A program made the translations under genes and the position numbers. Shown here one piece after another: positions 5,684 to 34,202 of a stretch of 34,202 bases of DNA. The notes beneath the pieces were generated by a model. It was not told where the DNA came from. It saw only the letters and a list, made by a program, of their open reading frames with translations, and did not search any database. How positions within the stretch are numbered: position 1 is the first letter of the stretch; each line of letters begins with the position of its first letter. The stretch lies in the IMG/VR virus record IMGVR_UViG_3300031647_000028. One strand, written 5' to 3'. This DNA comes from a virus.

Positions 5684-6243
5684 TACAGTCTAAATAACTC
5701 TCTTCGTCTGCCAATATTTTGTCTAGCCTTTAAAGCTGTAAGCTCATCTCGCATCATCTCAGCCATTGGTGCGAAGCTTCTAATAACTTTAGCGTCTTTT
5801 CTTGGTGCTATCTTACCACTTTGTGCGCCATAAGTGCTTGATTTTACTGAAGTTTTAGAGTCTCCAGGGGTCTTAGTCATTGAGTGTTCTGACTTATAAG
5901 TAGTAGCTTCAATCTTACCTTTCTCATTGTTAGCTTTAAGCTGAGAACCTGAGTATGTTGGGGCTTTAGAATCACCTTTAACCGACTCAAGCTCCTCATC
6001 AGGAGACATCATGTCATCTAGCATAGCCATCAGGTTGTCCATTTCAGATTCTTCTTCAGGATCATCAGCAAAGTGAAGAGCATTAGCTTTCATGTACTCT
6101 TCTTCAGACATCTCATCTTCATACTTATTGAATGTCTCTTGTAACATGTGCATCCATACTTCTTGTAGCTTACACTTGAATCTATCAAGCTCTAATCCAC
6201 CAGATGTTGAGTCTTCTAATATATCAAACATAGTTCTTCCCAT
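5683..6243 (-). CDS. Hypothetical acidic 186-aa protein (head-module position)
   Basis: ORF downstream of the capsid gene with a D/E-rich centre. Confidence 0.5.
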   Translation of the reverse strand: MGRTMFDILEDSTSGGLELDRFKCKLQEVWMHMLQETFNKYEDEMSEEEYMKANALHFADDPEEESEMDNLMAMLDDMMSPDEELESVKGDSKAPTYSGSQLKANNEKGKIEATTYKSEHSMTKTPGDSKTSVKSSTYGAQSGKIAPRKDAKVIRSFAPMAEMMRDELTALKARQNIGRRRELFRL

Positions 6244-6460
6244 TTGTGTTTAATCGTTTGTTCTCACGCATATTCCAACGGTGTGTATCAGCTGCAAAAG
6301 AGCGATAATCTTGACCAAATTGGAAATTAGTGCAGAATGTTAGTTCATAGTAAGAAGGTTCTCCGCAGTCTGGACAGACTTGTGGTTCTTCACGTTTACT
6401 GTAAGAAACTATATTATCTTCAGTATGGTTATTTTTACATTTATAAGTAAATAGCGGCAT
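6224..6460 (-). CDS. Putative zinc-ribbon protein (FmdB-like)
   Basis: 78 aa. YKCKNNH...VCPDCGEP resembles a small zinc-ribbon regulator pattern. Confidence 0.4.
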   Translation of the reverse strand: MPLFTYKCKNNHTEDNIVSYSKREEPQVCPDCGEPSYYELTFCTNFQFGQDYRSFAADTHRWNMRENKRLNTNGKNYV

Positions 6461-6483
6461 AACTAATCCTAATTAATTCAGAA

Positions 6484-6509
6484 TAGCCCTCTCATCTAGA
6501 CAAGGGCTA
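6484..6509 (-). terminator. Hairpin after the major capsid gene (possible terminator/attenuator)
   Basis: On the minus strand, a 7-bp stem UAGCCCU/AGGGCUA with a 12-nt loop is followed by UUCUGAAUUAAUU. It begins 19 nt after the capsid stop codon. Confidence 0.4.
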
Positions 6510-6527
6510 CGCTTAACTAACTAACTA

Positions 6528-7445
6528 CTACGACTGTGGACATACGAACGCTACACCAGCGTAATCACGTAATCCAGAAACACCGTAAATAGTATCAGCA
6601 GTAAACAAGTCACCTAAGTATTCTTGTTTGTACTGAGTTTGCGAACGAACGCCAACTTGCTCTGCAAGAACTAAAGCGTCTTTATGCATTAACATACCTA
6701 CACGACCAGTTGTACTGATTGAAGGACAGTTATTAGTTACCAACACATCTACACCGTAGATTTGTCCGATAGTACCATTCTTAATAGCATCACCGTTACC
6801 AATGAACTGTTGCTCAGTGAAACGTGCGATAGCTAATAAGTCATTAGCAGCTACTGGAGGTAGCACTAAAGAACGGTTATCCATAGGAACATCAGAATTA
6901 TCTAACTTGAGAATCATCTGTCTGATACCAGCGTCAGTAAGAGTTGAAGCATTACTAGAGTTACCAGTGTATAACGTAGTACCGTCACCGATTACAGCTT
7001 TCTCCCATAAATTAGCGGCTGCGCCACCTGCTGTTCCACCTTGGAACTCTTCAGCTAAAGCGAATAAGTCATCTTCCACTTGATTAGCTAGTGCATAACC
7101 AGCGTCATCAGTGTAGAACTTACGCATTGAAGCTAATGCTTGAACTTCAGCAATATCTTCAATCAACTTCGAGTATTCGTAGTGTTTGTTAATGCTAATT
7201 GCTACAACACCTGCTGTATCAGCAATCATTGTAACCTGTGAATTAGCAGCTTTTACAGATGCAGTACCACGAGCAGGAACAGGGATATTAATAGTATCGC
7301 CTTTCTTACCTTTGTGAGACATCTTTGTAACTAAGTTTGCAACAACTAAGTTTTGTTTGTACGCACCAATAACTTCATCCGACCATAGAGCAGGGATGAA
7401 ATTAGCTGATGTTGTAATCGTACTATGGTTAGTACCTAAACCCAT
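6528..7445 (-). CDS. Major capsid protein
   Basis: 305 aa, immediately after the scaffold-like gene. The N-terminal ...FIPALWSDEV... motif and the size fit podovirus HK97-fold capsid proteins. A hairpin follows the gene. Confidence 0.7.
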   Translation of the reverse strand: MGLGTNHSTITTSANFIPALWSDEVIGAYKQNLVVANLVTKMSHKGKKGDTINIPVPARGTASVKAANSQVTMIADTAGVVAISINKHYEYSKLIEDIAEVQALASMRKFYTDDAGYALANQVEDDLFALAEEFQGGTAGGAAANLWEKAVIGDGTTLYTGNSSNASTLTDAGIRQMILKLDNSDVPMDNRSLVLPPVAANDLLAIARFTEQQFIGNGDAIKNGTIGQIYGVDVLVTNNCPSISTTGRVGMLMHKDALVLAEQVGVRSQTQYKQEYLGDLFTADTIYGVSGLRDYAGVAFVCPQS

Positions 7446-12308: not shown

Positions 12309-12395
12309 TTAATTATCTCCCTGTAAGAGGTTAAAGTATCATTATTATATACTGAAGCAAATACATAAACATAAACAATATCAATATATTATGAC

Positions 12396-12424
12396 TTGAC
12401 AGTATTCGTTTCGTCAGCTAAAAT
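12396..12424 (+). promoter_or_regulatory. Near-consensus sigma70-type promoter facing ORF-free DNA
   Basis: TTGACA (12396-12401), 17-nt spacer, TAAAAT (12419-12424). Confidence 0.45.
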
Positions 12425-12753
12425 CCTTCTTAACTAGTTAGCCAACACATAGTAGTAATCACTTATCCCTTCTAAAGCTAACATAGTTAATGCGGATAGC
12501 CTCTTATGGCTATATTCCCATTTCTCCTCTTTTTTGAAATCCCGTTTTTTCTGTCTTGGGTATAGCATCCATTACTGCAAGCAAGCAAGTGAGCCTCCCC
12601 CTATCGATTAGCTTAAAAGCTAAAAAGATACACTCTTAAACATAGCTTAAAGCCTTACATAGCACCGATTAAACGCCAGCTTACACAATATGAGAGATAA
12701 AAAGAAAATGAGTAGGATTAGCAACCCAGGCTTATTTACTCCAAACCCTTATA

Positions 12754-12949
12754 GATCCTGGCTAACAATTAACTAAGCATCTACTAATCTTATTGATCTA
12801 ATGATCCTGGCCTTCATAGATCACTTAATCCTGGTTGATCTCTTCTAACTGATCAACTTCTATTCATTCCAGATCGTATGATCCTGGATCGTTTTATCTT
12901 TGATCGTAGCTAATTTATCTTTTATCGGAGCAAAAACGCTTGATCCTGG
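12754..12949 (+). repeat. Five dispersed GATCCTGG-type 8-mers (iteron-like)
   Basis: GATCCTGG at 12754, 12803, 12880 and 12942; AATCCTGG at 12827. All are in the same orientation. Each fuses a GATC and a CCWGG site. Confidence 0.8.
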
Positions 12950-12958
12950 ATTGATTTA

Positions 12959-13027
12959 ACTTCCAAAAACCATTTGACAGACTTCCAGAAGTTTAATTTA
13001 ACTTCCTACATGACTTCCAATGCTTCC
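12959..13027 (+). repeat. ACTTCC short direct repeats
   Basis: ACTTCC at 12959, 12981, 13001 and 13013; GCTTCC at 13022. TTTAACTTCC occurs twice. TTGACAG at 12974. Confidence 0.7.
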
Positions 13028-13040
13028 CAGGCTTTAAAAA

Positions 13041-13082
13041 TTACCAGGTATTGATCAAACTATTTACCAGGCTATGATCAAA
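13041..13082 (+). repeat. Two 19-nt direct repeats TTACCAGG-NNN-TGATCAAA, 23-bp period
   Basis: 13041-13059 ttaccaggtattgatcaaa and 13064-13082 ttaccaggctatgatcaaa. Confidence 0.8.
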
Positions 13083-13185
13083 AAGTTATTAACAATTATT
13101 AATACAAAATAATGCTTTGACAGTAGTATCTTAACACCTGGCCGCCAAATACTTATCCACTAAGTTATACAAAAGCAACAGGCAC

Positions 13186-13209
13186 AAAAAAACCAGCAAT
13201 TAATGCTGG
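13186..13209 (-). terminator. Rho-independent terminator (minus strand) after the leftward early operon
   Basis: Minus-strand RNA reads CCAGCA-UUAAU-UGCUGG followed by U7. It lies about 100 nt downstream of the stop at 13305. Confidence 0.65.
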
Positions 13210-13304
13210 CTTAATATTCCCCCCTTTTAACTGATCAACTGAATAACTGATCTATTACCGCTTGAATCATTAGATCAACCGCCATTAACGCCTGGATCAA
13301 CTGA

Positions 13305-13628
13305 TCAAGCATTGGCAAACGCTTTTAGATCGTTCAAATGATCTTCCAGGATTTGATCGTTACCCGTTACAAGATCCCAAAAGCCAGGCTTGATCTGATA
13401 CGCTCTCATTCCTACAACCTTTTCGGGGAAGCCTTTATATAATCTCATAATGTTTGATCCATCTGCATGAGCCATAGTCAAAGATAGTTTATTTTCAAAC
13501 CCTCCCAGGCCTCCAAACTGCCAACCTTTCAAAAAGTTAATATCGCTATCGTTATAAACCTCCTCCAGGCTTGCATTTAGTATCCATGTATCTAAAGCTA
13601 TTAATTTTCTTGTGTTTGATCTTCCCAT
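13305..13628 (-). CDS. Hypothetical 107-aa early protein
   Basis: ORF with a 1-nt overlap to the upstream gene. No recognisable domain. Confidence 0.55.
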   Translation of the reverse strand: MGRSNTRKLIALDTWILNASLEEVYNDSDINFLKGWQFGGLGGFENKLSLTMAHADGSNIMRLYKGFPEKVVGMRAYQIKPGFWDLVTGNDQILEDHLNDLKAFANA

Positions 13629-13816: not shown

Positions 13817-14097
13817 TAGTTAACCTCCGTTATTGAATTGATCAATGCATCTTGTAAATGGATCGTTGCAAGTGTTTCGCTGTTAATACTTTGAAACGTG
13901 TATCCGATGTTATCGGCCAGGTTAAAAGACTCTACCAGGCTTGCATCATTTTCGGCCAGGTATTGCATTGCCTTATGGTAGTAAATTATCTCTTGCTCCT
14001 GGCACCACTCTATCGCTTGATCGTAATCTTCAAACTTCATAATTTCACCGTGATATGTATCATCTACTGAGTAACTTTCTTTTATATCGTTTTGCAT
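13816..14097 (-). CDS. Hypothetical strongly acidic 93-aa early protein
   Basis: GGAG upstream of the ATG. About 18 D/E versus 3 K and 0 R by my count. Confidence 0.55.
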   Translation of the reverse strand: MQNDIKESYSVDDTYHGEIMKFEDYDQAIEWCQEQEIIYYHKAMQYLAENDASLVESFNLADNIGYTFQSINSETLATIHLQDALINSITEVN

Positions 14098-14146
14098 AAT
14101 CTAATCTCCATGATTAAAAACAAGATCAAAATTGATCCATGCCGAA

Positions 14147-14180
14147 ATTATAACCTGGCCTGGCCTGGCATATTATTCAA
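14147..14180 (-). promoter_or_regulatory. Promoter-like element with a 22-nt spacer made of three abutting CCWGG sites
   Basis: On the minus strand: TTGAAT (14180-14175), then a 22-nt spacer containing GCCAGGCCAGGCCAGG, then TATAAT (14152-14147). It lies upstream of the 93-aa gene. Confidence 0.3.
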
Positions 14181-14222
14181 TTTGAAATATTAATTTTATT
14201 AAAAATCCCTATGTTACGGGCG

Positions 14223-14257
14223 AAAAAAAACCCACCTTAGTAAAAACTTTAGGCGGG
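14223..14257 (-). terminator. Rho-independent terminator (minus strand) inside the leftward early operon
   Basis: Minus-strand RNA stem CCCGCCU/AGGUGGG (7 bp, one G-U pair) followed by U8. Confidence 0.6.
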
Positions 14258-14258
14258 C

Positions 14259-14313
14259 TTTACGTTAACCGTTACGTGATCGTTACGTTGGCGTTACGTT
14301 GGCGTTACACGTT
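14259..14313 (+). repeat. Five CGTTACGT-like units with an exact 11-bp period
   Basis: Units start at 14259 (tttacgtt), 14270, 14281 and 14292 (cgttacgt), and 14303 (cgttacacgt). The array overlaps the last codons and stop of the 87-aa ORF. Confidence 0.85.
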
Positions 14314-14557
14314 GACCAGGTTGTAAGTTACCGTTGCTAGGGATCACGGGCATATCATCAAAGGGAGTGAAAAACACTCCGCCTTCATTACCCTCATCAT
14401 CACAGCTTGCCAAAATATACGTGCCATCAGTAAAGATAATCATCGGAGCAGATTTATTCCAACCCAAATTCTTTAGATCCCTGGTAGTGGTGTATTCAAT
14501 TTTTTCAACTATCTTGCCTTCAAACAATTTAGTTGCATCTCCAATCCAATCTCTCAT
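14294..14557 (-). CDS. Hypothetical 87-aa early protein
   Basis: ORF with a 4-nt overlap to the upstream gene. No recognisable domain. Confidence 0.55.
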   Translation of the reverse strand: MRDWIGDATKLFEGKIVEKIEYTTTRDLKNLGWNKSAPMIIFTDGTYILASCDDEGNEGGVFFTPFDDMPVIPSNGNLQPGQRVTPT

Positions 14558-14892
14558 AGTCTGATCTCCATTGATCCACCAAAAGGTTTAACACAGCCAC
14601 TTCCTGGAGAATAATACCAAACAAAATCTTTTTGGAATATATGGCCTAAATTCAAATGATCAAGAATACCATTCAATCGCTCTTTAGTAGTTACGGTTTG
14701 CCAACCTCCATCACTAAGCGTTATTGTTTTTCTCTTTTGGCCAGGATTTTCACTATCATTAAACCAGGCAATAGCGTTACCATGCAATCTCATAACGCCA
14801 TCACTAACACTCATATTTTGCTTATTCATTTTTCTATTATCAAACATTGTTTGAACACTATCTTTAGTTATTTGTCTCATTTTTTGCTCCAT
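14554..14892 (-). CDS. Hypothetical early protein (112 aa; more likely 108 aa from the ATG at 14880)
   Basis: First gene after the leftward promoter. The second in-frame ATG (14880) has GGAG 7 nt upstream, and the first ATG has no SD. Confidence 0.55.
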   Translation of the reverse strand: MEQKMRQITKDSVQTMFDNRKMNKQNMSVSDGVMRLHGNAIAWFNDSENPGQKRKTITLSDGGWQTVTTKERLNGILDHLNLGHIFQKDFVWYYSPGSGCVKPFGGSMEIRL

Positions 14893-14911
14893 GCTTTATT
14901 TAAGAAACCAA

Positions 14912-14939
14912 ATCATACCATGGGTATATACTTTTGCAA
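14912..14939 (-). promoter_or_regulatory. Leftward early promoter (sigma70-like, extended -10)
   Basis: On the minus strand: TTGCAA (14939-14934), 16-nt spacer, TGgTATGAT (-10 at 14917-12). Confidence 0.5.
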
Positions 14940-15015
14940 CACTTAAATTTCAAAATAAAAGTTATACATCAAGTTATACAAGGCTTTGACGCCTTCACTC
15001 CAACCATACGTTACG

Positions 15016-15183
15016 TTATCAACACGTATGTATAAGTAGTTATCCACAATCACGTTAAATTGTTAACAACTAAGGCAAAAGGTAAGAGTTATCCACTTAT
15101 CCACAATCCTATACAATTGTTATCAACAGCTTTATCCACTATGCAAGTCATTGATTTAACAGTAAAAACTGAAGTTATCAACA
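15016..15183 (+). promoter_or_regulatory. Array of seven same-orientation DnaA-box-like 9-mers
   Basis: TTATCCACA at 15040 and 15097 (perfect). TTATCCACT at 15089 and 15132. TTATCAACA at 15016, 15120 and 15175. Confidence 0.7.
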
Positions 15184-15198
15184 GAAAAAGAGGCCACT

Positions 15199-15237
15199 AA
15201 TAATAATAATAATAAAAAAAAGAAAAAAGAAAAAAGA
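15199..15237 (+). repeat. C-free A/T-rich tract (AAT)5-A8-G-A6-G-A6-G-A; candidate DNA-unwinding/bent element
   Basis: Read directly. 39 nt with no C and three G on the plus strand. Confidence 0.6.
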
Positions 15238-15286
15238 TTTAGATCAATCGAACGTTAATCAATTTAAGTTAATTCAGTATATGCTA

Positions 15287-15315
15287 TTGACACACCGTAT
15301 TTAAACGAGTACAAT
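15287..15315 (+). promoter_or_regulatory. Rightward early promoter (sigma70-like)
   Basis: TTGACA (15287-15292), 17-nt spacer, TACAAT (15310-15315). Confidence 0.6.
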
Positions 15316-15384
15316 ATGAAACATATAACGCTGAAGTCCACGTTATAAGCGGGTTTAACGTTGTGTTAAGCTAGTTTTTAAAGG

Positions 15385-15414
15385 TCGTTACGAAGTAGTA
15401 CGAAGTCGTTACGA
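15385..15414 (+). promoter_or_regulatory. Operator-like direct repeats in the rightward leader
   Basis: TCGTTACGA at 15385 and 15406 (21-bp spacing) flank tandem TACGAAGT units. They lie between the promoter and the first gene. Confidence 0.4.
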
Positions 15415-15433
15415 TCAAACAATGGAGTAGTTT

Positions 15434-15730
15434 ATGACAAACAAAGAAGCAAGGGCAATCTGGCCAATGTTAAGTTTAAAAAGAGATCATCAAGTTGGTA
15501 TAAGTAATCAAGAAAGAATCAAGTTATTAGATATCGATATTGATGTATTGATCTTTATACAATCTCATCACAGAGTTACAACTAACAAAGTATATGCAAC
15601 CAAATACTTTAGAGATTATGGTTTTTCAACGATCAAACGAGCAATTGATAAATTATACAAAGCTAAAATCATTTCAAAAACTGTTGATTCGATAGATGCA
15701 AGGAAACGTATTTTGGAGTTAATAACATGA
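15434..15730 (+). CDS. MarR-like winged-helix DNA-binding protein
   Basis: 98 aa. ...STIKRAIDKLYKAKIISKTVDSIDARKRILELIT resembles the MarR recognition helix, wing and DxR motif. GGAG lies 7 nt upstream. First gene of the rightward operon. Confidence 0.5.
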   Translation: MTNKEARAIWPMLSLKRDHQVGISNQERIKLLDIDIDVLIFIQSHHRVTTNKVYATKYFRDYGFSTIKRAIDKLYKAKIISKTVDSIDARKRILELIT

Positions 15731-15963
15731 AGGAATTAAAAGAAAATATCAAGAATCTAGTTGATGAAAGTAGAGATTGTAAAGCGAAGCTTCAGGATCT
15801 ATATACGGCCGTTACGGGCGAGTTAACTGATGTCAGCATGCATAGTCATATAGACGTTGTAAACATGGCCATGATCGCTAAAGAAGCTAATGATTTAATA
15901 AGCTATACAACTTCAGATGAGTATGTTTCTTTGTTTAATCTAATGCAAGAGGATGAGTCATGA
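15727..15963 (+). CDS. Hypothetical acidic 78-aa protein
   Basis: ATGA overlap with the upstream gene. Confidence 0.5.
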   Translation: MKELKENIKNLVDESRDCKAKLQDLYTAVTGELTDVSMHSHIDVVNMAMIAKEANDLISYTTSDEYVSLFNLMQEDES

Positions 15964-16184
15964 TCATAGAAATCAAACCAAACGAATACATAAACACGGA
16001 TCATATTATTTACTTTAAAAGATCAATGGATATTAAACACGGATTTAATAACACTATCACTGAGCATTGGCATGTATATGTCGATTTAGTTGGGCGTAGC
16101 ATCACTATAAACTTTGATCAAGATGAAGCTGAAGCTAACGTATTGATCCGTAAACTACTAAAGGCCTGTAATGAAAACATTTAA
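15960..16184 (+). CDS. Hypothetical 74-aa protein
   Basis: ATGA overlap with the upstream gene. Confidence 0.5.
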   Translation: MIIEIKPNEYINTDHIIYFKRSMDIKHGFNNTITEHWHVYVDLVGRSITINFDQDEAEANVLIRKLLKACNENI

Positions 16185-16410
16185 AGCAAGATTTAACGAG
16201 TATGAAGTTATGGAAACAGTTAGTGGATTATATCTAACTACTACATTACCAACTGATCATACGGAGTGGAGCGATAGTTATTGGGAAGACTTTTTGTTAT
16301 CGAATGTTGCTGAAGCTTACGAGGATCTACCAGCCGAGGATATTATGGCTATGATCCATGAAACAACTTCAGTATTTATGGGAATGATCAAGGAAAAAGA
16401 AAATGTTTGA
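16171..16410 (+). CDS. Hypothetical acidic 79-aa protein
   Basis: ORF overlapping the upstream gene by 14 nt. Confidence 0.45.
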   Translation: MKTFKARFNEYEVMETVSGLYLTTTLPTDHTEWSDSYWEDFLLSNVAEAYEDLPAEDIMAMIHETTSVFMGMIKEKENV

Positions 16411-16525
16411 TATTATGCTTGGAGCATTGATCTTATACATGGCCTTCAAGTTAACATACTTGATCGAATACAACGATAAAATAATTAATAGAGGTGAAGA
16501 TGAACACAACGTTAATTATCCTTAG
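16403..16525 (+). CDS. Possible 40-aa small membrane protein
   Basis: Not in the track. MFDIMLGALILYMAFKLTYLIEYNDKIINRGEDEHNVNYP. The ATG overlaps the upstream stop (ATGTTTGA). Confidence 0.3.
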   Translation: MFDIMLGALILYMAFKLTYLIEYNDKIINRGEDEHNVNYP

Positions 16526-16634
16526 TTTGATCTATATATCTCTAGAAGCCTTTACTTACCTACTCTACAGAGATTACAAAAGATCACAAGTAGAGTATAA
16601 GAAGTGTATAATAACAATTTTAAAGAGGAGATAA
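16500..16634 (+). CDS. Possible 44-aa small membrane protein
   Basis: Not in the track. MNTTLIILSLIYISLEAFTYLLYRDYKRSQVEYKKCIITILKRR. GAGGTG SD lies upstream. Confidence 0.35.
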   Translation: MNTTLIILSLIYISLEAFTYLLYRDYKRSQVEYKKCIITILKRR

Positions 16635-16636
16635 TC

Positions 16637-16846
16637 ATGATTGATTACGAAAAAGAAGATCAAAGATCTGAAGAGTTATACGATGAACACGTTGATGCTT
16701 TAGCACACCTACCAAGAGAGATTTGGGATGAAGTTAGACACCTACCAACAGTCCAAGCAATATCTTTGGGCGGTCAACTATTATTTGTCAAAAGACAGAA
16801 GGATAGAAACAAAGCAATTGCTGATTCTATTTGGGGGGAAAGATAA
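16637..16846 (+). CDS. Hypothetical 69-aa protein
   Basis: Track ORF 16604-16846 trimmed to ATG 16637, which is preceded by AGGAG. Confidence 0.5.
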   Translation: MIDYEKEDQRSEELYDEHVDALAHLPREIWDEVRHLPTVQAISLGGQLLFVKRQKDRNKAIADSIWGER

Positions 16847-17082
16847 TGGGATATTTTTCTAATTTGCATTTAGAGATGCAAGAAGATAATGCTCACACAC
16901 AAAGTGAAGAGCCAGATTTTATGGCCTATGCTCATGAAGTTATGGCGACTGAAGAGTTTGCCAGGGATATGGTTGATCATGATCGAGGTTATGATGAATA
17001 CAAAGAAAAGAGAGCTGGAGTCTTTCCCGAGATTGACTTAGGCTTTTTAGACATAAGAAAAGGAGATAAAAATGGAAGCTAA
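16846..17082 (+). CDS. Hypothetical acidic 78-aa protein
   Basis: Track ORF (TTG at 16831) trimmed to ATG 16846, which overlaps the upstream TAA (TAATG). Confidence 0.5.
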   Translation: MGYFSNLHLEMQEDNAHTQSEEPDFMAYAHEVMATEEFARDMVDHDRGYDEYKEKRAGVFPEIDLGFLDIRKGDKNGS

Positions 17083-17659
17083 AACACTAAACATTTATGA
17101 AAGATTAGCAATGGCTAGAAACATGATCACGGGCGTTAAAAAGAAAGCGAGCAATCCCTTTTTCAAGAGCAAGTATGCTGATCTAAACAGCGTTATGGAT
17201 GCCTTAGCACCTTCATTGATCGAGTGTAATCTGATCTATGTTCAGTATGCTAACCGTATTGATGGAGTTGATGTATTAACAACCGAGTTGGTTAACATTC
17301 CCAATCCAGAAGAGAAGATCATAAGCCACACGCACCTGGTTATACCTAGTGCTGATATGCAAAAGCTTGGAGGTGCAATTACCTATGCAAGGCGTTATGC
17401 TTTAGTCACTATGTTTGGCCTAGAAGCCATTGATGATGATGGCAATGTTGCATCTGGAAAGGCAAAGCCAGCAACGGCTACACAAGAACACAACGCACGG
17501 ATGCTTGCTGGAAAGAAAGCATTAGACAAGGCGAAGAAAGAAAATGATTATGACTCTGCTAGTGATATGTATGACTATGCAGAGAAAAACGGATTTATAC
17601 AGATCTGTGACTATTATCACCAGCTATTTGATTCTAATGAGTCAAGTGAAGGTATGTAA
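17072..17659 (+). CDS. erf: ERF-family single-strand annealing protein
   Basis: FKSKYADLNSV...LGGAITYARRYALVTMFGLE matches the conserved ERF core (G-x-x-x-TYxRRY). Confidence 0.75.
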   Translation: MEAKTLNIYERLAMARNMITGVKKKASNPFFKSKYADLNSVMDALAPSLIECNLIYVQYANRIDGVDVLTTELVNIPNPEEKIISHTHLVIPSADMQKLGGAITYARRYALVTMFGLEAIDDDGNVASGKAKPATATQEHNARMLAGKKALDKAKKENDYDSASDMYDYAEKNGFIQICDYYHQLFDSNESSEGM

Positions 17660-17770
17660 ATTAAGCTGATCACAAAGCTTTTTCGGGGGTACTCCATGTC
17701 CTCGTTATTATTTCGATGTGCGAGTTGCTGGCGTTACCAGCTAACTTAATTTTAATAAAAGGAGTAAGAA

Positions 17771-18031
17771 ATGTCAGAATCATATGATAATACAAACCGC
17801 GGCCAGATCTGGAAAAACGATGATATTAAATCAGATAAGCACCCTCAATTCAAAGGCTCATTAAACGTTGATGGGGTAGAGTATTGGGTATCAGCCTGGA
17901 CAAGAAAGGAAGGAGCAAACCCTAAAGCACCAGCATTAACATTTAGCATTGCTAAGAAGGAAGACAAAGTAGCTGAAGTATCTGCTGATACAGTAGCACA
18001 AGATGGATTTGATGATGCGATCCCGTTTTAA
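17771..18031 (+). CDS. 86-aa protein with an SSB-type acidic C-terminal tip (mini-SSB or SSB-tip mimic)
   Basis: It ends in DGFDDAIPF (compare E. coli SSB ...MDFDDDIPF). It sits next to the ERF gene. AAGGAG SD lies upstream. Confidence 0.5.
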   Translation: MSESYDNTNRGQIWKNDDIKSDKHPQFKGSLNVDGVEYWVSAWTRKEGANPKAPALTFSIAKKEDKVAEVSADTVAQDGFDDAIPF

Positions 18032-18056
18032 ATAACAACATATAGGTAATAAAATC

Positions 18057-18719
18057 ATGGAGTATTCTATTATTGATAATGTAATTATCAACCACACACC
18101 ATACGATATAGAAGATTACACGGGGGCAAGCCTCCAATCTCTATTGACTAATAAAACAACCAAGCTATCGTTTAAGTTAACGGTATTCTTTGGTTATAAC
18201 GCTAGTAAAAATTCAGTTAGTCACACTATTGAAGTAACAGAAAATCAATACACAGCCTTGGCTGGAGCAGTTATTGATAAGAACAAAGATATGTTATTAA
18301 ACAATAAACAGATCCTATCTGATGATGAGTTATTTGGTAAACCTAGTACAACTACGTTACGTACTCGTAACGACTCTACTAATACTAATACTATACTTAC
18401 TACTATAAATACTAATACTAATACTAATACTAAGAAGGATCAAATTGAAAACTTCATTCCGAACGAGGCTTCAGAGAAAGCAGTTAGAGATAAGCACGTT
18501 GGCATAACAGCCAGCCAGGCTAATGATCTAATTCAGTCATTCAAAGATCAGATGCTGAATAGAACGGCCAAGTGGCAAGATCTACAGTCATGCTTTAGAA
18601 ACTACTTGAGAAAGGATTACATTGGTATTGATCAGTCAACTAAAAAGAAAGGCACGTTTGCTGGCATGAGTGACTCACGTAAAGCATTGATTGCTATGAA
18701 GCTGGGGGCAACACAATGA
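18057..18719 (+). CDS. Two-domain protein, weak replisome-organiser/replication-initiation candidate
   Basis: 220 aa. The N- and C-terminal parts are joined by a T/N low-complexity linker. The C-terminal W-x-D...F-x-N-Y-L pattern recalls DnaD/organiser-type domains (memory only). It sits in the recombination/replication module. Confidence 0.3.
   Translation: MEYSIIDNVIINHTPYDIEDYTGASLQSLLTNKTTKLSFKLTVFFGYNASKNSVSHTIEVTENQYTALAGAVIDKNKDMLLNNKQILSDDELFGKPSTTTLRTRNDSTNTNTILTTINTNTNTNTKKDQIENFIPNEASEKAVRDKHVGITASQANDLIQSFKDQMLNRTAKWQDLQSCFRNYLRKDYIGIDQSTKKKGTFAGMSDSRKALIAMKLGATQ
18355..18433 (+). repeat. Inverted CGTTACG pair plus a 61-nt G-free TACTAA-type hexamer repeat
   Basis: CGTTACG (18355-61), tact, CGTAACG (18366-72). 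Then 18373-18433 has no G and carries repeated tactaa/aatact units. Confidence 0.85.
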
Positions 18720-19165
18720 CTGAAGATGAAGTAAACACGCTGGCCAATGAGTTAGTAGAAGAGTTAATTGTATTCAACAAGATCAAGATGAACGTTAAGA
18801 ATATTTGGGCGACCAAGTTGATTGACTTCTTTTTGAGTGAGAAGCAAGACTACAACCTATTCCAGCACTCCAAGGTTATGAAGAGTATTCCGAAGATCCC
18901 AGCTGATGGTATCCAAGCATTACTTGAGTTGATTAAACAACAGAACAACCAGATGGAAACCAAGCTTATATCCAACACTACACACTCTAAGCCTAACTAT
19001 AGTAAGATATGGGATAAGTCTGATGAAAAGGCCAAGGCTTGCTTCTATGATACGTTTGATCCACAAGATGTATCGCCAGCAACCAAATGGTTTTCGAGAG
19101 AGTATTTCAGAGAGATTGGCTGGACTGAAAAACAAATTACAAGGACACTAGGATTGCCTTGGTAA
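18716..19165 (+). CDS. Hypothetical 149-aa protein
   Basis: ATGA overlap with the upstream gene. No recognisable motifs. Confidence 0.5.
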   Translation: MTEDEVNTLANELVEELIVFNKIKMNVKNIWATKLIDFFLSEKQDYNLFQHSKVMKSIPKIPADGIQALLELIKQQNNQMETKLISNTTHSKPNYSKIWDKSDEKAKACFYDTFDPQDVSPATKWFSREYFREIGWTEKQITRTLGLPW

Positions 19166-19196
19166 AACAATAATAATTAACGGGGGAAAGAATGTT

Positions 19197-19655
19197 ATGA
19201 AAAAAGCAGTAAAACAATACACACTTACTGATGGATCTACTTGGACAGCATTAGAGTTAAGTAAAAAATTAAATCTAACAACAACAGCTTGCAGATACAG
19301 ATTAGATCAGTCTAATAAAGTGGAGTGGGTAATGCGTGTTCAACATAAAGCGATGGGTCGCAAGAAAAAACATACTTGTAGAAAATTTACCTTATCAGAT
19401 GGATGCGTATTATCAGCCGAAGAGTGTGCAAAAAAATATAATATTTGCACTTCAACAATGTATGCAAGGTTACAAAGAAATATTAGAGATGTAGATACTC
19501 TTGGAAAGATACCCACAAAAGGAAGACAAAGCAACATTCATGCTGGATATGTGCCAATAGAAAAACAGCCAAACATTATTAAAAAATCTATTATGAAGCG
19601 TAATGCTTATGATCCAATGAGTAGACTATTCATGATGCTAGGAGCTGGAGCATGA
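19197..19655 (+). CDS. DNA-binding protein with two tandem HTH-like repeats
   Basis: YTLTDGSTWTALELSKKLNLTTTACRYRL and FTLSDGCVLSAEECAKKYNICTSTMYARLQR are internal repeats resembling NUMOD1/HTH modules. Confidence 0.4.
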   Translation: MKKAVKQYTLTDGSTWTALELSKKLNLTTTACRYRLDQSNKVEWVMRVQHKAMGRKKKHTCRKFTLSDGCVLSAEECAKKYNICTSTMYARLQRNIRDVDTLGKIPTKGRQSNIHAGYVPIEKQPNIIKKSIMKRNAYDPMSRLFMMLGAGA

Positions 19656-19945
19656 GTTATTACAATACTAACAATGAAGAGGGTAGTGCCCTTTCACGTT
19701 CAAGAGAAAATACTCAAAACCAAGAGGAGTTGATACTTGCTATCTTCAATAAAGAAGAGCGTCTTTCACCTGATGAAGTATTGGATGTATGTAACGAGGA
19801 GCATAACTATCCAATAACAAGTGTTAGGCGTGCCATGACAAACCTAACCAACAAAGGGCTGTTGATCAAAACAAATATATTTAAAAAGGGTAAGTACGGA
19901 AAGATGACACATACCTGGAAGCTTTCAAACGGAGAAATAAGATGA
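19652..19945 (+). CDS. Winged-helix DNA-binding protein
   Basis: EELILAIF...SPDEVLD...ITSVRRAMTNLTNKGLLIKT...GKMTHTWKL fits an HTH-plus-wing pattern. Confidence 0.45.
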   Translation: MSYYNTNNEEGSALSRSRENTQNQEELILAIFNKEERLSPDEVLDVCNEEHNYPITSVRRAMTNLTNKGLLIKTNIFKKGKYGKMTHTWKLSNGEIR

Positions 19946-20139
19946 AATTTCATGATGATGCGTTATGTAAACAAAAGATAGAGTGTATTCTTGGCTTCCT
20001 TAAAGAGATCAATGACATAGTTGAGTACCCAAGATCAGACAGAGAGCAGTTCATTAGATGCTCATTAGAGCAAGCATTGCAAGACTTGCAGTACCTGGAT
20101 AACGAGTTAGACCTTGGTGAGGATGAAACGCACTCATGA
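19942..20139 (+). CDS. Hypothetical 65-aa protein
   Basis: ATGA overlaps on both sides. Confidence 0.5.
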   Translation: MKFHDDALCKQKIECILGFLKEINDIVEYPRSDREQFIRCSLEQALQDLQYLDNELDLGEDETHS

Positions 20140-20528
20140 AGCATACATTCTATGTAACACCCGTTCCAGCAAGCCGACCTAGAGTAACAAGATGGTCAAC
20201 CTTTTATCCTAAGAAATATACAGAGTTCAGAGCTTCCATGAAAGTTGCATTGGGGGATGTGCAGTTTGTACCCTTTCAGACGAACGTATATGCGAAATTA
20301 GACTTCTTTGTGCAAATCCCTAAGTCTTGGTCGAAGAAGAAGAAATTAGAGTACCAGGGTCGTTTCTGTGACAATAACGCAGATATTGATAATTACTGTA
20401 AGGCTATACTAGATTCATTAAATGGTATATACTACGAAGACGATCGACAAATTGTGATGATACGTGCAAGAAAATATTGGTCGAACACTCCACGGATCAA
20501 GTGTGAGTTCTTAAAAATGCAAGACTAA
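20136..20528 (+). CDS. rusA: RusA-family Holliday junction resolvase
   Basis: ADIDNYCKAILDSLNGIYYEDDRQIV matches the RusA DxDNxxKxxxDxL...DD catalytic signature. 130 aa. Confidence 0.85.
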   Translation: MKHTFYVTPVPASRPRVTRWSTFYPKKYTEFRASMKVALGDVQFVPFQTNVYAKLDFFVQIPKSWSKKKKLEYQGRFCDNNADIDNYCKAILDSLNGIYYEDDRQIVMIRARKYWSNTPRIKCEFLKMQD

Positions 20529-20542
20529 ACTTGGGGAAGTTA

Positions 20543-20710
20543 ATGACAACAACAGAAATGTGTATAAAACTAGCTGAAGACTACGCTGACCGTGCCACTA
20601 AAGGTGGTGCTAACTATGATGATGCGTATGAGCATTATCTAACGAGATGTTTGAATAGGAACGAGAAAGAATTGAAACAACAGGTTGATGTTCAAGGTCT
20701 TAATCCCTAG
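20543..20710 (+). CDS. Possible 55-aa hypothetical protein
   Basis: Not in the track. MTTTEMCIKLAEDYADRATKGGANYDDAYEHYLTRCLNRNEKELKQQVDVQGLNP. GGGGAAG lies upstream of the ATG. Confidence 0.4.
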   Translation: MTTTEMCIKLAEDYADRATKGGANYDDAYEHYLTRCLNRNEKELKQQVDVQGLNP

Positions 20711-20869
20711 TAATTTAGTGCGTGAATAGTTGAAAAAACACTATGGGGGGTGAAAAAACAAATCTGAGGAGATTCCTATCCACGCGTGCTAACTATACCA
20801 TATTCCAACAAATAGTCAAGTGTATCTATAGTGTATAATAGTATTATTTATAGCACACAATAGGGCATT

Positions 20870-21037
20870 ATGGCTTCTCACCAGATCAATATCAAAGTAG
20901 ACACAGACGATTTATCTTTCATAGACACAAAAGCAAAACGCTACGGGTTAAGTCGTAGCGCAATGATTAAGTTGTTTGCTTTAAACGCTGAGATGAACGT
21001 TAGCGTACCTTCCAAACTACAGAAGCCTAAGATTTAA
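20870..21037 (+). CDS. Ribbon-helix-helix (Arc/CopG-like) DNA-binding protein, 55 aa
   Basis: Not in the track. MASHQINIKVDTDDLSFIDTKAKRYGLSRSAMIKLF... fits a beta-strand plus two-helix RHH pattern. TATAAT lies at about 20834-20839 upstream. Confidence 0.5.
   Translation: MASHQINIKVDTDDLSFIDTKAKRYGLSRSAMIKLFALNAEMNVSVPSKLQKPKI
20925..20960 (-). terminator. Rho-independent terminator of the late operon, lying inside the RHH coding sequence
   Basis: Minus-strand stem CGCUACG/CGUAGCG (7 bp, 8-nt loop) followed by UUUUGCUUUUGUGU. It lies about 75 nt past the stop at 21034. Confidence 0.5.
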
Positions 21038-33766: not shown

Positions 33767-34197
33767 TATCTCCCCTTAGCAAGTGATGCACCGAAGTACA
33801 TTTCAACTATTAAGCTAGTCCATCCGAATATCTCATCATACTTAACCAAGCCTCTAACCATCGTATATTCAACAGTATCAGAAGTAATATCAAAACCTAG
33901 AAAGCTAATACCTTCAGTAACGATAGGAATAGCAGTAGGAAGGTCAAATATAATAGGAGCAAGGACATAAACAGTAATCAAGGCAAGCATCACCCAAATG
34001 ATTAATCGTCTGTTTAAGGCAGCCATAGGGCTTTCTTTATTAGCAGCGATACGAGCAGCATCTACAGCTTGTGATCTAGCAGCAAACGCATCTAGCATTT
34101 GTGACTGTTGTTCTGCTTTAGCTTGTTGATTAAGAGCAAACAACTTCATTAAGAAGCCACCTAAGATAGGTGCTATGCTTGTTAATAGACTAATCAC
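33766..34197 (-). CDS. Multi-pass membrane protein, possible holin (3-TM type)
   Basis: 143 aa with a GTG start. A hydrophobic N-terminus is followed by a Q/A-rich helix, then LIIWVMLALITVYVLAPIIF and a C-terminal hydrophobic segment. The architecture recalls GTA-type 3-TM holins (memory only). Confidence 0.35.
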   Translation of the reverse strand: MISLLTSIAPILGGFLMKLFALNQQAKAEQQSQMLDAFAARSQAVDAARIAANKESPMAALNRRLIIWVMLALITVYVLAPIIFDLPTAIPIVTEGISFLGFDITSDTVEYTMVRGLVKYDEIFGWTSLIVEMYFGASLAKGR

Positions 34198-34202
34198 AAG
34201 AC
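34141..34202. repeat. Second copy of the 62-nt window-end overlap
   Basis: Identical to nt 1-62. Confidence 0.9.

Follow-up and report, generated by a model that had tools for sequence, protein, structure and literature searches.

The window analysed here, that is, the whole 34,202-nucleotide stretch of viral DNA held as IMG/VR record IMGVR_UViG_3300031647_000028, has contig ends that overlap by 62 nt, which fits a circular, complete genome of about 34.1 kb. Terminase, portal and capsid genes are present in the circularly assembled genome of this small marine phage. The relatives of the portal protein are distant (20-25% identity), a megablast comparison of positions 14000-16500 with isolated phages gave no match, and no RNA genes were found anywhere in the window by Rfam or tRNA searches. 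The host is likely Candidatus Thioglobus (SUP05/Thioglobus-type Gammaproteobacteria). Genes of the early region are ordered Erf, SSB-like, 220 aa, 149 aa, Ren-like and RusA; the product of the 149-aa gene had no match (PHROGs, Pfam and NCBIfam among the searches). The genome has only two divergent transcription units, and an array of DnaA boxes lies between them. The block is bounded by two promoters and does not adjoin dnaA or dnaN. The cumulative GC skew has its minimum at about 14.5-15.5 kb, but skew tracks gene orientation throughout the genome, so that its switch at the array is uninformative and was rejected as evidence for an origin.

Both promoters named in the initial annotation were recovered by a consensus scan. 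The leftward promoter is sigma-70-like (14912-14939, - strand; TTGCAA-16-TATGAT with a TG element, 9/12) and would drive the 112-aa gene and the other leftward genes; its -35 hexamer, TTGCAA, is kept in the related phages L002 and L166 and is different in L005 and L020. The rightward early promoter is a closer match (15287-15315, + strand; TTGACA-17-TACAAT, 11/12), with CTATTGACACAC conserved. Promoter-like sites show no excess in the region overall, and the two promoters are supported because both sites are conserved in relatives. Around the predicted rightward transcription start is the inverted repeat ATAACG-N10-CGTTAT (15325-15346), of which a similar version occurs in L002 and L005; as read from the sequence, it may act as an operator. 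The early 5' leader carries two exact copies, 21 bp apart, of the operator-like 9-bp palindrome TCGTTACGA (15385-15414, + strand). This pair is conserved in L002, L004 and L005, and L020 has a variant. The TCGTTACGA copies and repeats of the ACGTTAA type flank the array, and phage proteins therefore probably bind nearby.

The array had been described as seven 9-mers with no more than one mismatch to the DnaA-box consensus TTATCCACA, and all seven are found on the + strand within 15016-15183. Box A (TTATCAACA, 15016-15024) is followed by box B (15040-15048), by the overlapping boxes C (TTATCCACT) and D, which start at 15089 and 15097 (15089-15105), and by boxes E (TTATCAACA, 15120) and F (TTATCCACT, 15132), a tandem pair with a 3-bp gap (15120-15140). 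The proximal box G (TTATCAACA, 15175-15183) is directed at the triplets described below. Boxes B and D are perfect copies of TTATCCACA and the other five have one mismatch each. In five lineages box A is either TTATCAACA or TTATCCACA. Two weak DnaA-like boxes that the initial annotation missed, TTATACATC and TTATACAAG, start at 14962 and 14974 (14962-14982, + strand; 12 nt start to start) and include two direct copies of AAGTTATACA; at this place relatives carry TTATCAACA plus TTATAAACA or TTATTAACA. A further element, TTGTTAAYAAC (15060-15070, - strand), is conserved with a pairwise identity of 0.96 across five lineages. In relatives its reverse complement is TTATTAACA, which is box-like and in the opposite orientation, and it may also bind DnaA.

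Clustering of the boxes is far beyond chance. The whole window contains 19 matches with at most one mismatch, compared with 10.6 +/- 3.5 in dinucleotide shuffles, and 7 of these 19 are packed into 170 bp; the largest 170-bp cluster in each of 300 second-order Markov sequences held one match (175 sequences) or two (125 sequences). The additional box reported at 13153 is a genuine TTATCCACT and is half of a tandem pair, TTATCCACT-AAG-TTATACAA, which is also found in L002. A repeat search recovered only families derived from the boxes, and no inverted-repeat framework. A GATC-rich stretch at 12750-13400 was considered as a Dam/SeqA-type origin part and rejected: it is not conserved in L002 or L166, and GATC sites do not cluster in the Thioglobus-type origin either.

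The co-oriented box nearest to box G ends 34 bp upstream. Within this gap, between boxes F and G, there is a predicted IHF-consensus site, CAAGTCATTGATT (YAANNNNTTGATW; 15144-15156, + strand), which had been overlooked in the initial annotation. Downstream of box G, positions 15199-15237 do form the C-free tract first described, (AAT)5-A8-G-A6-G-A6-G-A. The sequence after box G is better parsed as a 13-nt spacer (GAAAAAGAGGCCA, 15184-15196, + strand), followed by CTA ATA ATA ATA ATA ATA at 15197-15214 and then, at 15215-15237, by a run rich in A (A7 G A6 G A6 G A). On the - strand the middle part forms six DnaA-trio-like NAN triplets, 3'-GAT(TAT)5-5', equivalent to five 5'-TTATT-3' motifs (CTA(ATA)5 on the + strand), and together with the A-rich run these make up the proposed unwinding element. 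In helix stability, 15198-15242 ranks lowest or second lowest in the genome among stretches of 30-45 bp. There is no GATC within 15184-15241, the nearest being at 15242, and the repeat search found no 13-mer repeats in the unwinding element.

Bacterial origins contain a basal unwinding system (BUS; Richardson 2016, Pelliciari 2021 and 2023) made up of DnaA boxes and DnaA-trios, both of which are required for strand separation by DnaA. By the published rules of the BUS, the box may have up to 2 mismatches and the spacer may measure 0-16 nt, with 13 the commonest length; three or more consecutive NAN triplets (consensus 3'-G/A-A-T-5') follow on the strand whose 5' tail leads away from the box. 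The phage module has the same order of parts: a proximal box with one mismatch to TTATCCACA (15175-15183), 13 nt to the first trio, six triplets running 5'-wards on the - strand in agreement with (.A.){3,}, and then AT-rich DNA. Six trios are engaged by the B. subtilis complex. The orientation of the trios was checked against E. coli R1 with its unwinding element and against dnaA-dnaN origins. The first phage triplet is 3'-GAT-5' and the other five of the six are 3'-TAT-5' rather than the preferred 3'-G/A-A-T-5' (GAT or AAT); TAT-type triplets are common to host origins too. As for a second co-oriented box in tandem with the proximal one, the tandem pair of the phage is at 15120/15132; such a pair occurs in about 57% of bacterial origins and so is not obligatory.

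A chromosomal BUS typically lies beside dnaA or dnaN, whereas this module sits on a phage genome; given the phage genes and the circular assembly, it is a copy carried by the phage and not a chromosomal oriC. A strict scan (a box with at most one mismatch and at least six triplets) of about 650 kb of DNA from related phages gave matches only in the array-bearing loci L155, L156 and L166. Relaxing the grammar to two mismatches and five triplets produced many chance matches, and only the strict form is informative.

The conservation of the boxes in relatives, which the initial annotation had left to be checked, extends to the whole module. Box positions, the IHF-like site, spacer length and trios are in register in five lineages, with only 2 gap columns across 205 bp, and identity is 0.88 in box columns compared with 0.53 between boxes. 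Variation within the boxes falls mainly at positions 5, 6 and 9. The trios are 100% identical in the five lineages, and the 13-nt length of the spacer is invariant in these and in L231. The IHF-consensus match is perfect in four of the five lineages and has one mismatch in L020. The A-rich run is nearly invariant in four lineages, while L166 and L231 have other AT-rich sequence there.

The grammar recurs independently in a second, distantly related phage group (L226, L227 and L231), which has 8-10 co-oriented boxes, an IHF-like site and a gap of again 34 bp. A 13-nt spacer and trios come next, and AT-rich DNA leads on to a consensus early promoter. L231 itself has an IHF-consensus match with the same 34-bp gap and 13-nt spacer. 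No replication proteins were recognised by PHROGs among 10 early-region ORFs of this group. A point against the origin reading given below is that L151 and L152, whose terminase is 98% identical, have no array at all, which indicates an exchangeable module rather than a requirement of this type of virion. The distant relative L008 was not counted as carrying the module, since its at least nine TTATCCACAGG boxes end in a box with no trio run after it.

The same module occurs in bacterial origins. The pattern TTATCMAC-N14-CTAATAATAAT matches in at least 120 bacterial genomes, mostly Gammaproteobacteria; among the matches listed (at least 120), at least two additional boxes are close by in 78, and an ORF with a DnaN-like N-terminus follows in 38. 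Pfam assignments gave the order dnaA, module, dnaN, recF and gyrB in L102 and dnaA, module, dnaN and recF in L076; in L029 dnaA is just upstream of the module and the N-terminus of the downstream gene is DnaN-like. The dnaA-dnaN module is found also in Candidatus Thioglobus. The proximal box of the Thioglobus-type oriC is TTATCAACA, the variant seen in phage box G, and its unwinding part is also free of GATC. Among the matches listed, Thioglobus-type origins are the closest to the window at unconstrained positions (13/15 and 12/15), but this closeness of the spacer is limited to the window's own lineage and is not shared by its sisters, and host-specific mimicry was accordingly downgraded to suggestive. 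The phage differs from the compact Thioglobus-type origin in that its upstream boxes are more numerous (7-9 consensus boxes, compared with 2-3) and strictly co-oriented.

The left half of E. coli oriC consists of the DnaA sites R5M to I2, an IHF site, R1 and the unwinding element. The E. coli sequence, verified in 5425 genomes between mnmG and mioC, reads R1 (TTATCCACA), 13 nt and then CTAATAAGAG, so that R1, a 13-nt spacer and CTAATAA have their counterparts in the phage, as do the TTATT motifs on the T-rich strand. In both, the boxes are co-oriented toward the unwinding element and an IHF site, predicted in the phage from its match to YAANNNNTTGATW, separates the proximal box from the other co-oriented boxes upstream; the gap from the proximal to the next box, counted on the sequence, is 34 bp in the phage and about 46 bp in E. 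coli. Unlike E. coli oriC, the phage block has neither GATC-containing 13-mers nor a right half of oppositely oriented boxes.

The initial annotation had also drawn a parallel with P1 oriR and pSC101, and this comparison fits poorly because no Rep gene or Rep-type iterons were found: the flanking genes include no Rep family and the repeat search revealed no 17-22-bp iterons, although a divergent Rep may escape recognition. The origins of P1 oriR, pSC101 and RK2 oriV do resemble the phage block in combining, on a mobile replicon, DnaA boxes, an AT-rich region and an IHF site. Origins of this type require a Rep protein and iterons, with DnaA as a helper, and a recent review notes that DnaA has not been reported to contact the unwinding element of plasmids in its single-stranded form. 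The box-to-trio geometry of the phage is, in contrast, of the chromosomal type.

We consider the 14960-15240 block to be probably a DnaA-dependent replication origin built on the plan of gammaproteobacterial chromosome origins. The idea of an oriC mimic that recruits host DnaA, put forward in the initial annotation, is strengthened by the BUS grammar, by the identity with dnaA-dnaN modules, by conservation, by recurrence in the second phage group and by low helix stability; that the phage has no initiator at all is doubtful, as discussed below. Judged from the sequence, host DnaA would occupy the seven to nine co-oriented boxes, and an IHF-type bend in the 34-bp gap would fold the upstream DnaA array back to the proximal box. 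A DnaA-ATP oligomer could then extend from 15175-15183 across the 13-bp spacer onto the triplets of the - strand, leading to melting of the AT-rich tract at 15197-15240 and to loading of the host helicase and replisome. Transcription directed outward from the flanking promoters would generate negative supercoiling and aid opening. Later in infection, the phage Erf, SSB-like and RusA proteins may support the formation of recombination-dependent concatemers for packaging. DnaA and IHF binding, unwinding and helicase loading are all predicted steps in this scheme.

The replication genes of the phage bear on how complete its dependence on the host would be. Searches with PHROGs, Pfam and NCBIfam detected no helicase, primase, polymerase or initiator ATPase in the window, in agreement with the initial annotation. 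A complete lack of a phage initiator is doubtful because of the 220-aa gene (18057-18719), which occupies the position of lambda O and is a candidate for an O-like initiator. Homologues that share its N-terminal domain and linker match 'replication initiation O-like' and primosomal PHROGs. The 220-aa protein itself had no match in Pfam, PHROGs, NCBIfam or a PDB profile search; its AlphaFold model (mean pLDDT 69, pTM 0.38) found no Foldseek match in PDB or BFVD at E <0.001, and BLASTP showed no similarity to the recognised initiator of L151. As to whether an initiator takes the place of the array in phages that lack it, the signs are mixed: a recognised initiator occurs in L151, which has no array, but in the window the array is accompanied by the O-like candidate.

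A second candidate unwinding site is located inside the 220-aa gene at 18354-18432 (+ strand), where the conserved palindromes ACGTTACGT and TCGTAACGA precede a trio-like tract of about 17 CTA/ATA triplets, which codes for the T/N-rich linker of the protein. Positions 18385-18429 are the least stable 45-bp stretch of the genome. Early gene order and the AT-rich tract in the DNA for the interdomain linker resemble the lambda origin, in which the sites and AT tract are within the initiator gene. This likeness concerns 18354-18432 only, as the box array is intergenic and made of DnaA boxes. A phage protein, either the 220-aa O-like candidate or a binder of the ACGTTAA or TCGTTACGA sites, may participate in the origin at the array. 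Tentatively, and as a possibility that we would not ourselves expect to hold, these small marine phages may have no initiator of their own for the array origin. An enhanced copy of the host module, its boxes more numerous and better oriented than those of the compact host origin, would both fire replication and divert DnaA from the host chromosome, with a second origin in the 220-aa gene being driven later by phage protein. On that reading, this would be the first mobile element for which use of the whole chromosomal mechanism, DnaA box through DnaA-trio, had been shown.

An O-like candidate with a melting tract of its own also means that the working origin could be there and that the box array could be regulatory; gating of transcription was the alternative raised in the initial annotation. 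The array would then be a DnaA-responsive control region, at which occupancy, reflecting the replication and energy state of the host, decides the relative use of the leftward and rightward promoters, and the origin would lie elsewhere, most likely in the 220-aa tract. DnaA is a transcription factor at many promoters, and such a role suits both the place of the array exactly between the two divergent units and the AT-rich, palindrome-flanked tract of the O-like candidate gene. The boxes are, however, clear of both core promoters: of the seven, the nearest lies 77 bp from the leftward -35 hexamer and 104 bp from its rightward counterpart. Regulation also leaves unexplained the invariant 13-nt spacer, the invariant trios and the identity with the dnaA-dnaN module, and the second phage group keeps the grammar with no divergent promoter to control. 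We regard a purely regulatory array as unlikely.

The array might instead be a sink for DnaA comparable to datA, which is a box cluster with an IHF site. Present on a multicopy phage, many high-affinity boxes and an IHF site would titrate or inactivate DnaA and stop host initiation, and the phage does have both an IHF-like site inside its cluster and more consensus boxes (7-9) than the Thioglobus-type origin (2-3). But co-orientation, the 13-nt spacer, the trios and the melting tract would be unneeded for titration and are nevertheless all conserved; datA has no need of adjoining trios or of DNA that is among the least stable in the genome. An origin could titrate DnaA incidentally, without this being its purpose, and we think it quite improbable that titration is the function of the array.

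Still less probable is that the repeats are iterons for a phage DNA-binding protein (such as the 98-aa protein, which is winged-helix-like, or the 220-aa protein through its N-terminal domain) and resemble DnaA boxes by chance. The commonest variant, TTATCAACA, does deviate from the E. coli consensus at position 6, and other short repeats (ACGTTAA type and TCGTTACGA) flank the array. The sites nevertheless stay TTAT[C/T/A][C/A]AC[N] across lineages whose flanking proteins are 56-61% identical, and also in the second group with its different early genes, while those of L166, L231 and L008 shift toward the universal TTATCCACA. Moreover, TTATCAACA is native to the Thioglobus-type oriC as its proximal box, and box, spacer and trios together match bacterial origins.

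T5-like phages have eight conserved DnaA boxes in the first-step-transfer region, for which a role in injection stop or membrane anchoring has been proposed, not shown; these boxes form pairs inside inverted repeats of the terminal repeat, no trios or unwinding tract adjoin them, and they are regarded as unrelated to replication. An equivalent signal in the present phage is hardly credible: its boxes share the variants TTATCAACA and TTATTAACA with the T5-like sets, in which some pairs are also 3 bp apart, but they all point the same way, are internal to a genome that assembles as a circle and are coupled to an unwinding module.

Some plasmid and phage origins are known to contain DnaA boxes, with DnaA assisting a Rep protein, and no description of DnaA-trios in a phage was found in the literature searched. 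A functional module would mean that the chromosomal unwinding system is portable and has been taken over by viruses, and would account for the replication of a 34-kb phage that has no detectable replication enzymes. It would also provide a natural substrate of about 280 bp, with co-oriented boxes, an IHF bend, a 13-bp spacer and six trios, for tests of origin sufficiency. In uncultured phages, the same signature could be used to predict origins and hosts, here SUP05/Thioglobus-type Gammaproteobacteria.

Between the divergent early promoters of the window, seven 9-mers resembling DnaA boxes (15016-15183) lie where the initial annotation had placed them, all on the + strand. When one mismatch is allowed, the window holds 19 sites (shuffled sequence, 10.6 ± 3.5), and seven of the 19 fall inside 170 bp, a span for which 300 second-order Markov sequences gave a maximum of two. 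Likewise, the earlier description of the C-free tract (15199-15237) and of both promoter-like sites holds. Overlooked were two weaker boxes at 14962 and 14974, 12 bp apart, a conserved site (15060-15070) that resembles a box in reverse orientation, and a perfect IHF-consensus site (15144-15156).

What was described as an A/T tract is an array of triplets, in fixed register with the last box. This proximal box, TTATCAACA (15175-15183, + strand), is followed directly by the 13-nt spacer GAAAAAGAGGCCA and then by the triplets CTA ATA ATA ATA ATA ATA on the + strand, or 3'-GAT TAT TAT TAT TAT TAT-5' on the - strand. The published search rule for bacterial basal unwinding systems specifies a DnaA box with up to two mismatches, a spacer of 0-16 nt, of which 13 is the commonest length, and three or more NAN triplets, located on the strand that extends as a 5' tail from the box. 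The window satisfies every one of these sequence rules: its spacer is 13 nt long and its triplets number six, as many as the trios that engage seven DnaA protomers in the B. subtilis cryo-EM structure. Five copies of TTATT also stand on the - strand of the tract; in single-stranded form, this motif is reported to be bound by E. coli DnaA. Nearest-neighbour parameters applied to the whole genome place the minimum of 30-bp helix stability at 15198-15227, and 15198-15242 is the second least stable 45-bp segment (-42.4 kcal/mol; genome mean -55.8, sd 3.6).

The same register is found in E. coli oriC, where R1, read in the TTATCCACA direction, is followed by 13 nt and CTAATAAGAG. The oriC query sequence matched one chromosomal locus only, with 100% identity, in 5425 of 5426 genomes; in the one genome inspected, this locus lies between mnmG and mioC. 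Scanning one bacterial genome per species with the pattern TTATCMAC-N14-CTAATAATAAT gave at least 120 matches. Among those listed, most are from Gammaproteobacteria (Competibacteraceae, Acinetobacter, Kangiella, Woeseiaceae, Methylococcales, Alteromonadaceae and Thioglobus), 78 of 120 have at least two further DnaA boxes within 400 bp, and at least 38 of 120 have an ORF with a DnaN-like N-terminus no more than 200 nt downstream. Matches in Pelagibacteraceae look like false positives, having one coding-like sequence in common. Pfam searches of two Thioglobus-type loci (L102 and L076) gave the order dnaA, module, dnaN and recF, with gyrB too in L102; in a third (L029), dnaA lies immediately upstream by Pfam and the downstream gene has a DnaN-like N-terminus. 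The module of box, spacer and trios is thus predicted to be the chromosomal origin of many Gammaproteobacteria.

At position 6, the commonest phage box variant differs from the E. coli consensus, a concern answered by the Thioglobus-type origins, whose proximal box is TTATCAACA. At the 15 positions left free by the pattern, the window is closest, among the matches listed, to L102 (13/15) and the Thioglobus locus L029 (12/15), most others scoring 4-8. The spacers of the sister phage lineages have no such close match to Thioglobus-type origins, and for this reason we regard host-specific copying of the origin by the phage as suggestive only. The predicted Thioglobus-type oriC (L029 7575-7800, L102 and L076) is very compact, at about 200 bp from dnaA to dnaN, with one reverse box by the dnaA stop codon, one or two forward TTATCAACA boxes and five trios after the proximal one; no GATC was seen in the L102 and L029 origin stretches inspected.

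Conservation of the boxes in related phages, which the initial annotation had proposed as a check, is borne out by four further lineages that carry the array (L002/L004, L005/L006, L020 and L166) and whose array-flanking proteins are 56-61% identical among lineages. The five-lineage alignment of the 205 bp from the first box to the end of the trios has only two gap columns, column identity is 0.88 in the boxes versus 0.53 between them, and the 18-nt trio run shows no differences. Within the boxes, positions 1-4 and 7-8 are near-invariant and positions 5, 6 and 9 carry most of the variation (TTAT[C/T/A][C/A]AC[N]); those of L166 are mostly the canonical TTATCCACA and TTATACACA. Such a pattern would be expected of sites for a universal host protein and unexpected for a co-evolving phage protein.

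Running the bacterial-scan pattern on IMG/VR uncovered a second phage group (L226, L227 and L231), which has few proteins in common with the window phage, at 27-63% identity, and all its genes on one strand. Its layout (for example L231 10120-10400) comprises 8-10 co-oriented boxes, an IHF-consensus site, a 34-bp gap before the proximal box, as in the window, a 13-nt spacer, CTA(ATA)4, AT-rich DNA and a consensus early promoter, TTGACA-17-TATAAT. SSB, an HNH endonuclease and NinB are among its early genes, and a PHROGs scan of 10 early-region ORFs recognised no initiator, helicase or primase. The module in this group appears to be an independent recurrence. A distant relative (L008; 112-aa protein 40% identical, GC 0.45) carries nine or more TTATCCACAGG boxes across 1 kb of non-coding DNA (4030-4990), with a GC-rich hairpin after the last box and no trios.

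The contig begins and ends with the same 62 nt (1-62 and 34141-34202), and the window is therefore apparently a circularly assembled, complete phage genome of about 34,140 bp; alternatively, the genome has short terminal repeats. Two divergent transcription units start from the 540-bp intergenic region 14893-15433. The leftward unit begins with a 112-aa gene of the Kyano_Gp96 family and continues with small genes and a 1-kb stretch free of ORFs. A gene without family match, placed where a small terminase would lie, comes next, followed by large terminase, portal, scaffold and major capsid, and the unit crosses the contig junction to tail and internal-protein genes. Genes of the rightward unit (15434-21037) code for a small winged-helix-like protein and several unknown ones, for Erf, an SSB-like protein, the 220-aa and 149-aa proteins, a Ren-like protein, a second winged-helix-like protein and RusA. 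No close relative was found among isolated phages. Hydrothermal-plume metagenomes (Kilo Moana, Tahi Moana) are the source of the homologues, some of them on contigs binned as Candidatus Thioglobus, which is suggestive of SUP05-type gammaproteobacterial hosts. Among the structural genes is a 275-aa sulfotransferase-family gene (1545-2372), and the relative L151 has a PAPS reductase. Both may be auxiliary genes related to sulfur, as would suit a sulfur-oxidising host.

The ORF-free stretch (12310-13305), upstream of the gene in the small-terminase position, gave nothing in Rfam. It contains a conserved terminator hairpin with compensatory changes (13190-13212), a conserved tandem DnaA-box pair (13153-13173), a conserved block at about 12540-12620 and a strong promoter-like site on the + strand (12396-12424) that could drive a small RNA. 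There are 24 GATC sites in 12500-13499, many within TGATCCTGG repeats that are not conserved in L002 or L166.

The 220-aa gene (18057-18719) occupies the position of lambda O, in the order Erf, SSB-like, 220 aa, 149 aa, Ren-like and later RusA. The earlier view that the phage encodes no initiator is doubtful. Family and fold searches with this protein were without match, but homologues with its N-terminal domain and T/N-rich linker match 'replication initiation O-like', primosomal and 'replication initiation protein' PHROGs (E-values 1.5e-5 to 4e-3). The linker-encoding DNA includes the least stable 45 bp of the genome (18385-18429). In five lineages, nearly all codons of the T/N/I run are ACT, AAT or ATA (genome-wide, ACT is 41% of Thr codons), and the DNA (within 18354-18432 of the window) reads (ACT AAT / ATA)n, giving about 17 CTA/ATA triplets; the uniform codons could alternatively come from replication slippage. 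The tract is preceded by ACGTTACGT and TCGTAACGA, and in relatives by TCGTTACGA, palindromes that use rare codons (TCG, 5% of Ser; CGA, 7% of Arg). It looks like a second, lambda-type in-gene origin or a platform for phage-protein binding.

The early 5' leader (15385-15414) holds the only two other exact TCGTTACGA copies in the window, which start at 15385 and 15406, 21 bp from each other. They are kept in relatives, as is an inverted repeat, ATAACG-N10-CGTTAT (15325-15346), at the predicted transcription start, and both look like candidate operators for a phage regulator. Short ACGTTAA-type repeats, CACGTTAAG / ACGTTAAT, lie to the left and right of the array in all lineages (15051-15058 and 15253-15260 in the window; more copies in L002, L005 and L020), with 3-4 copies to the left in some lineages and copies directly right of the A-rich tract in all. 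They may be sites for a phage protein acting at the proposed origin, and a phage DNA-binding protein probably acts in this region as well.

On evidence that is computational throughout, we rank first a DnaA-dependent, oriC-type origin, perhaps assisted by a phage protein, a prediction we consider fairly probable, because the conserved spacing, orientation, trios, IHF site, low helix stability and identity with chromosomal modules would all be expected of an origin opened by DnaA. None of these features is needed for an injection signal, a DnaA sink or a region controlling the promoters. The main alternative, that the array regulates both promoters and replication begins within the 220-aa gene, seems unlikely to us; the two can both hold, two origins being present in phage P1, for example. 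The proposed likeness to P1 oriR and pSC101 fits poorly: in these, as in RK2, the leading part falls to a Rep protein and its iterons, with DnaA as helper, unlike in the element described here. Another difference is from the DnaA-box sets of T5-like phages, which are situated in inverted repeats of the terminal repeat and thought to be unrelated to replication. No report of DnaA-trios in a phage was found in the literature searched. By sequence, the element fits the definition of a basal unwinding system, without being a chromosomal origin.

The large terminase is 81-100% identical in the best 80 of 575 matching IMG/VR stretches (L148-L225), and their early regions are mosaic. Two relatives with 98% identical terminases (L151, locus 6174-6622, and L152) lack the box array and have other early genes in its place, among them one for a recognised replication initiation protein; a DNA methyltransferase and a PAPS reductase are present too. 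The array is therefore part of an exchangeable early module.
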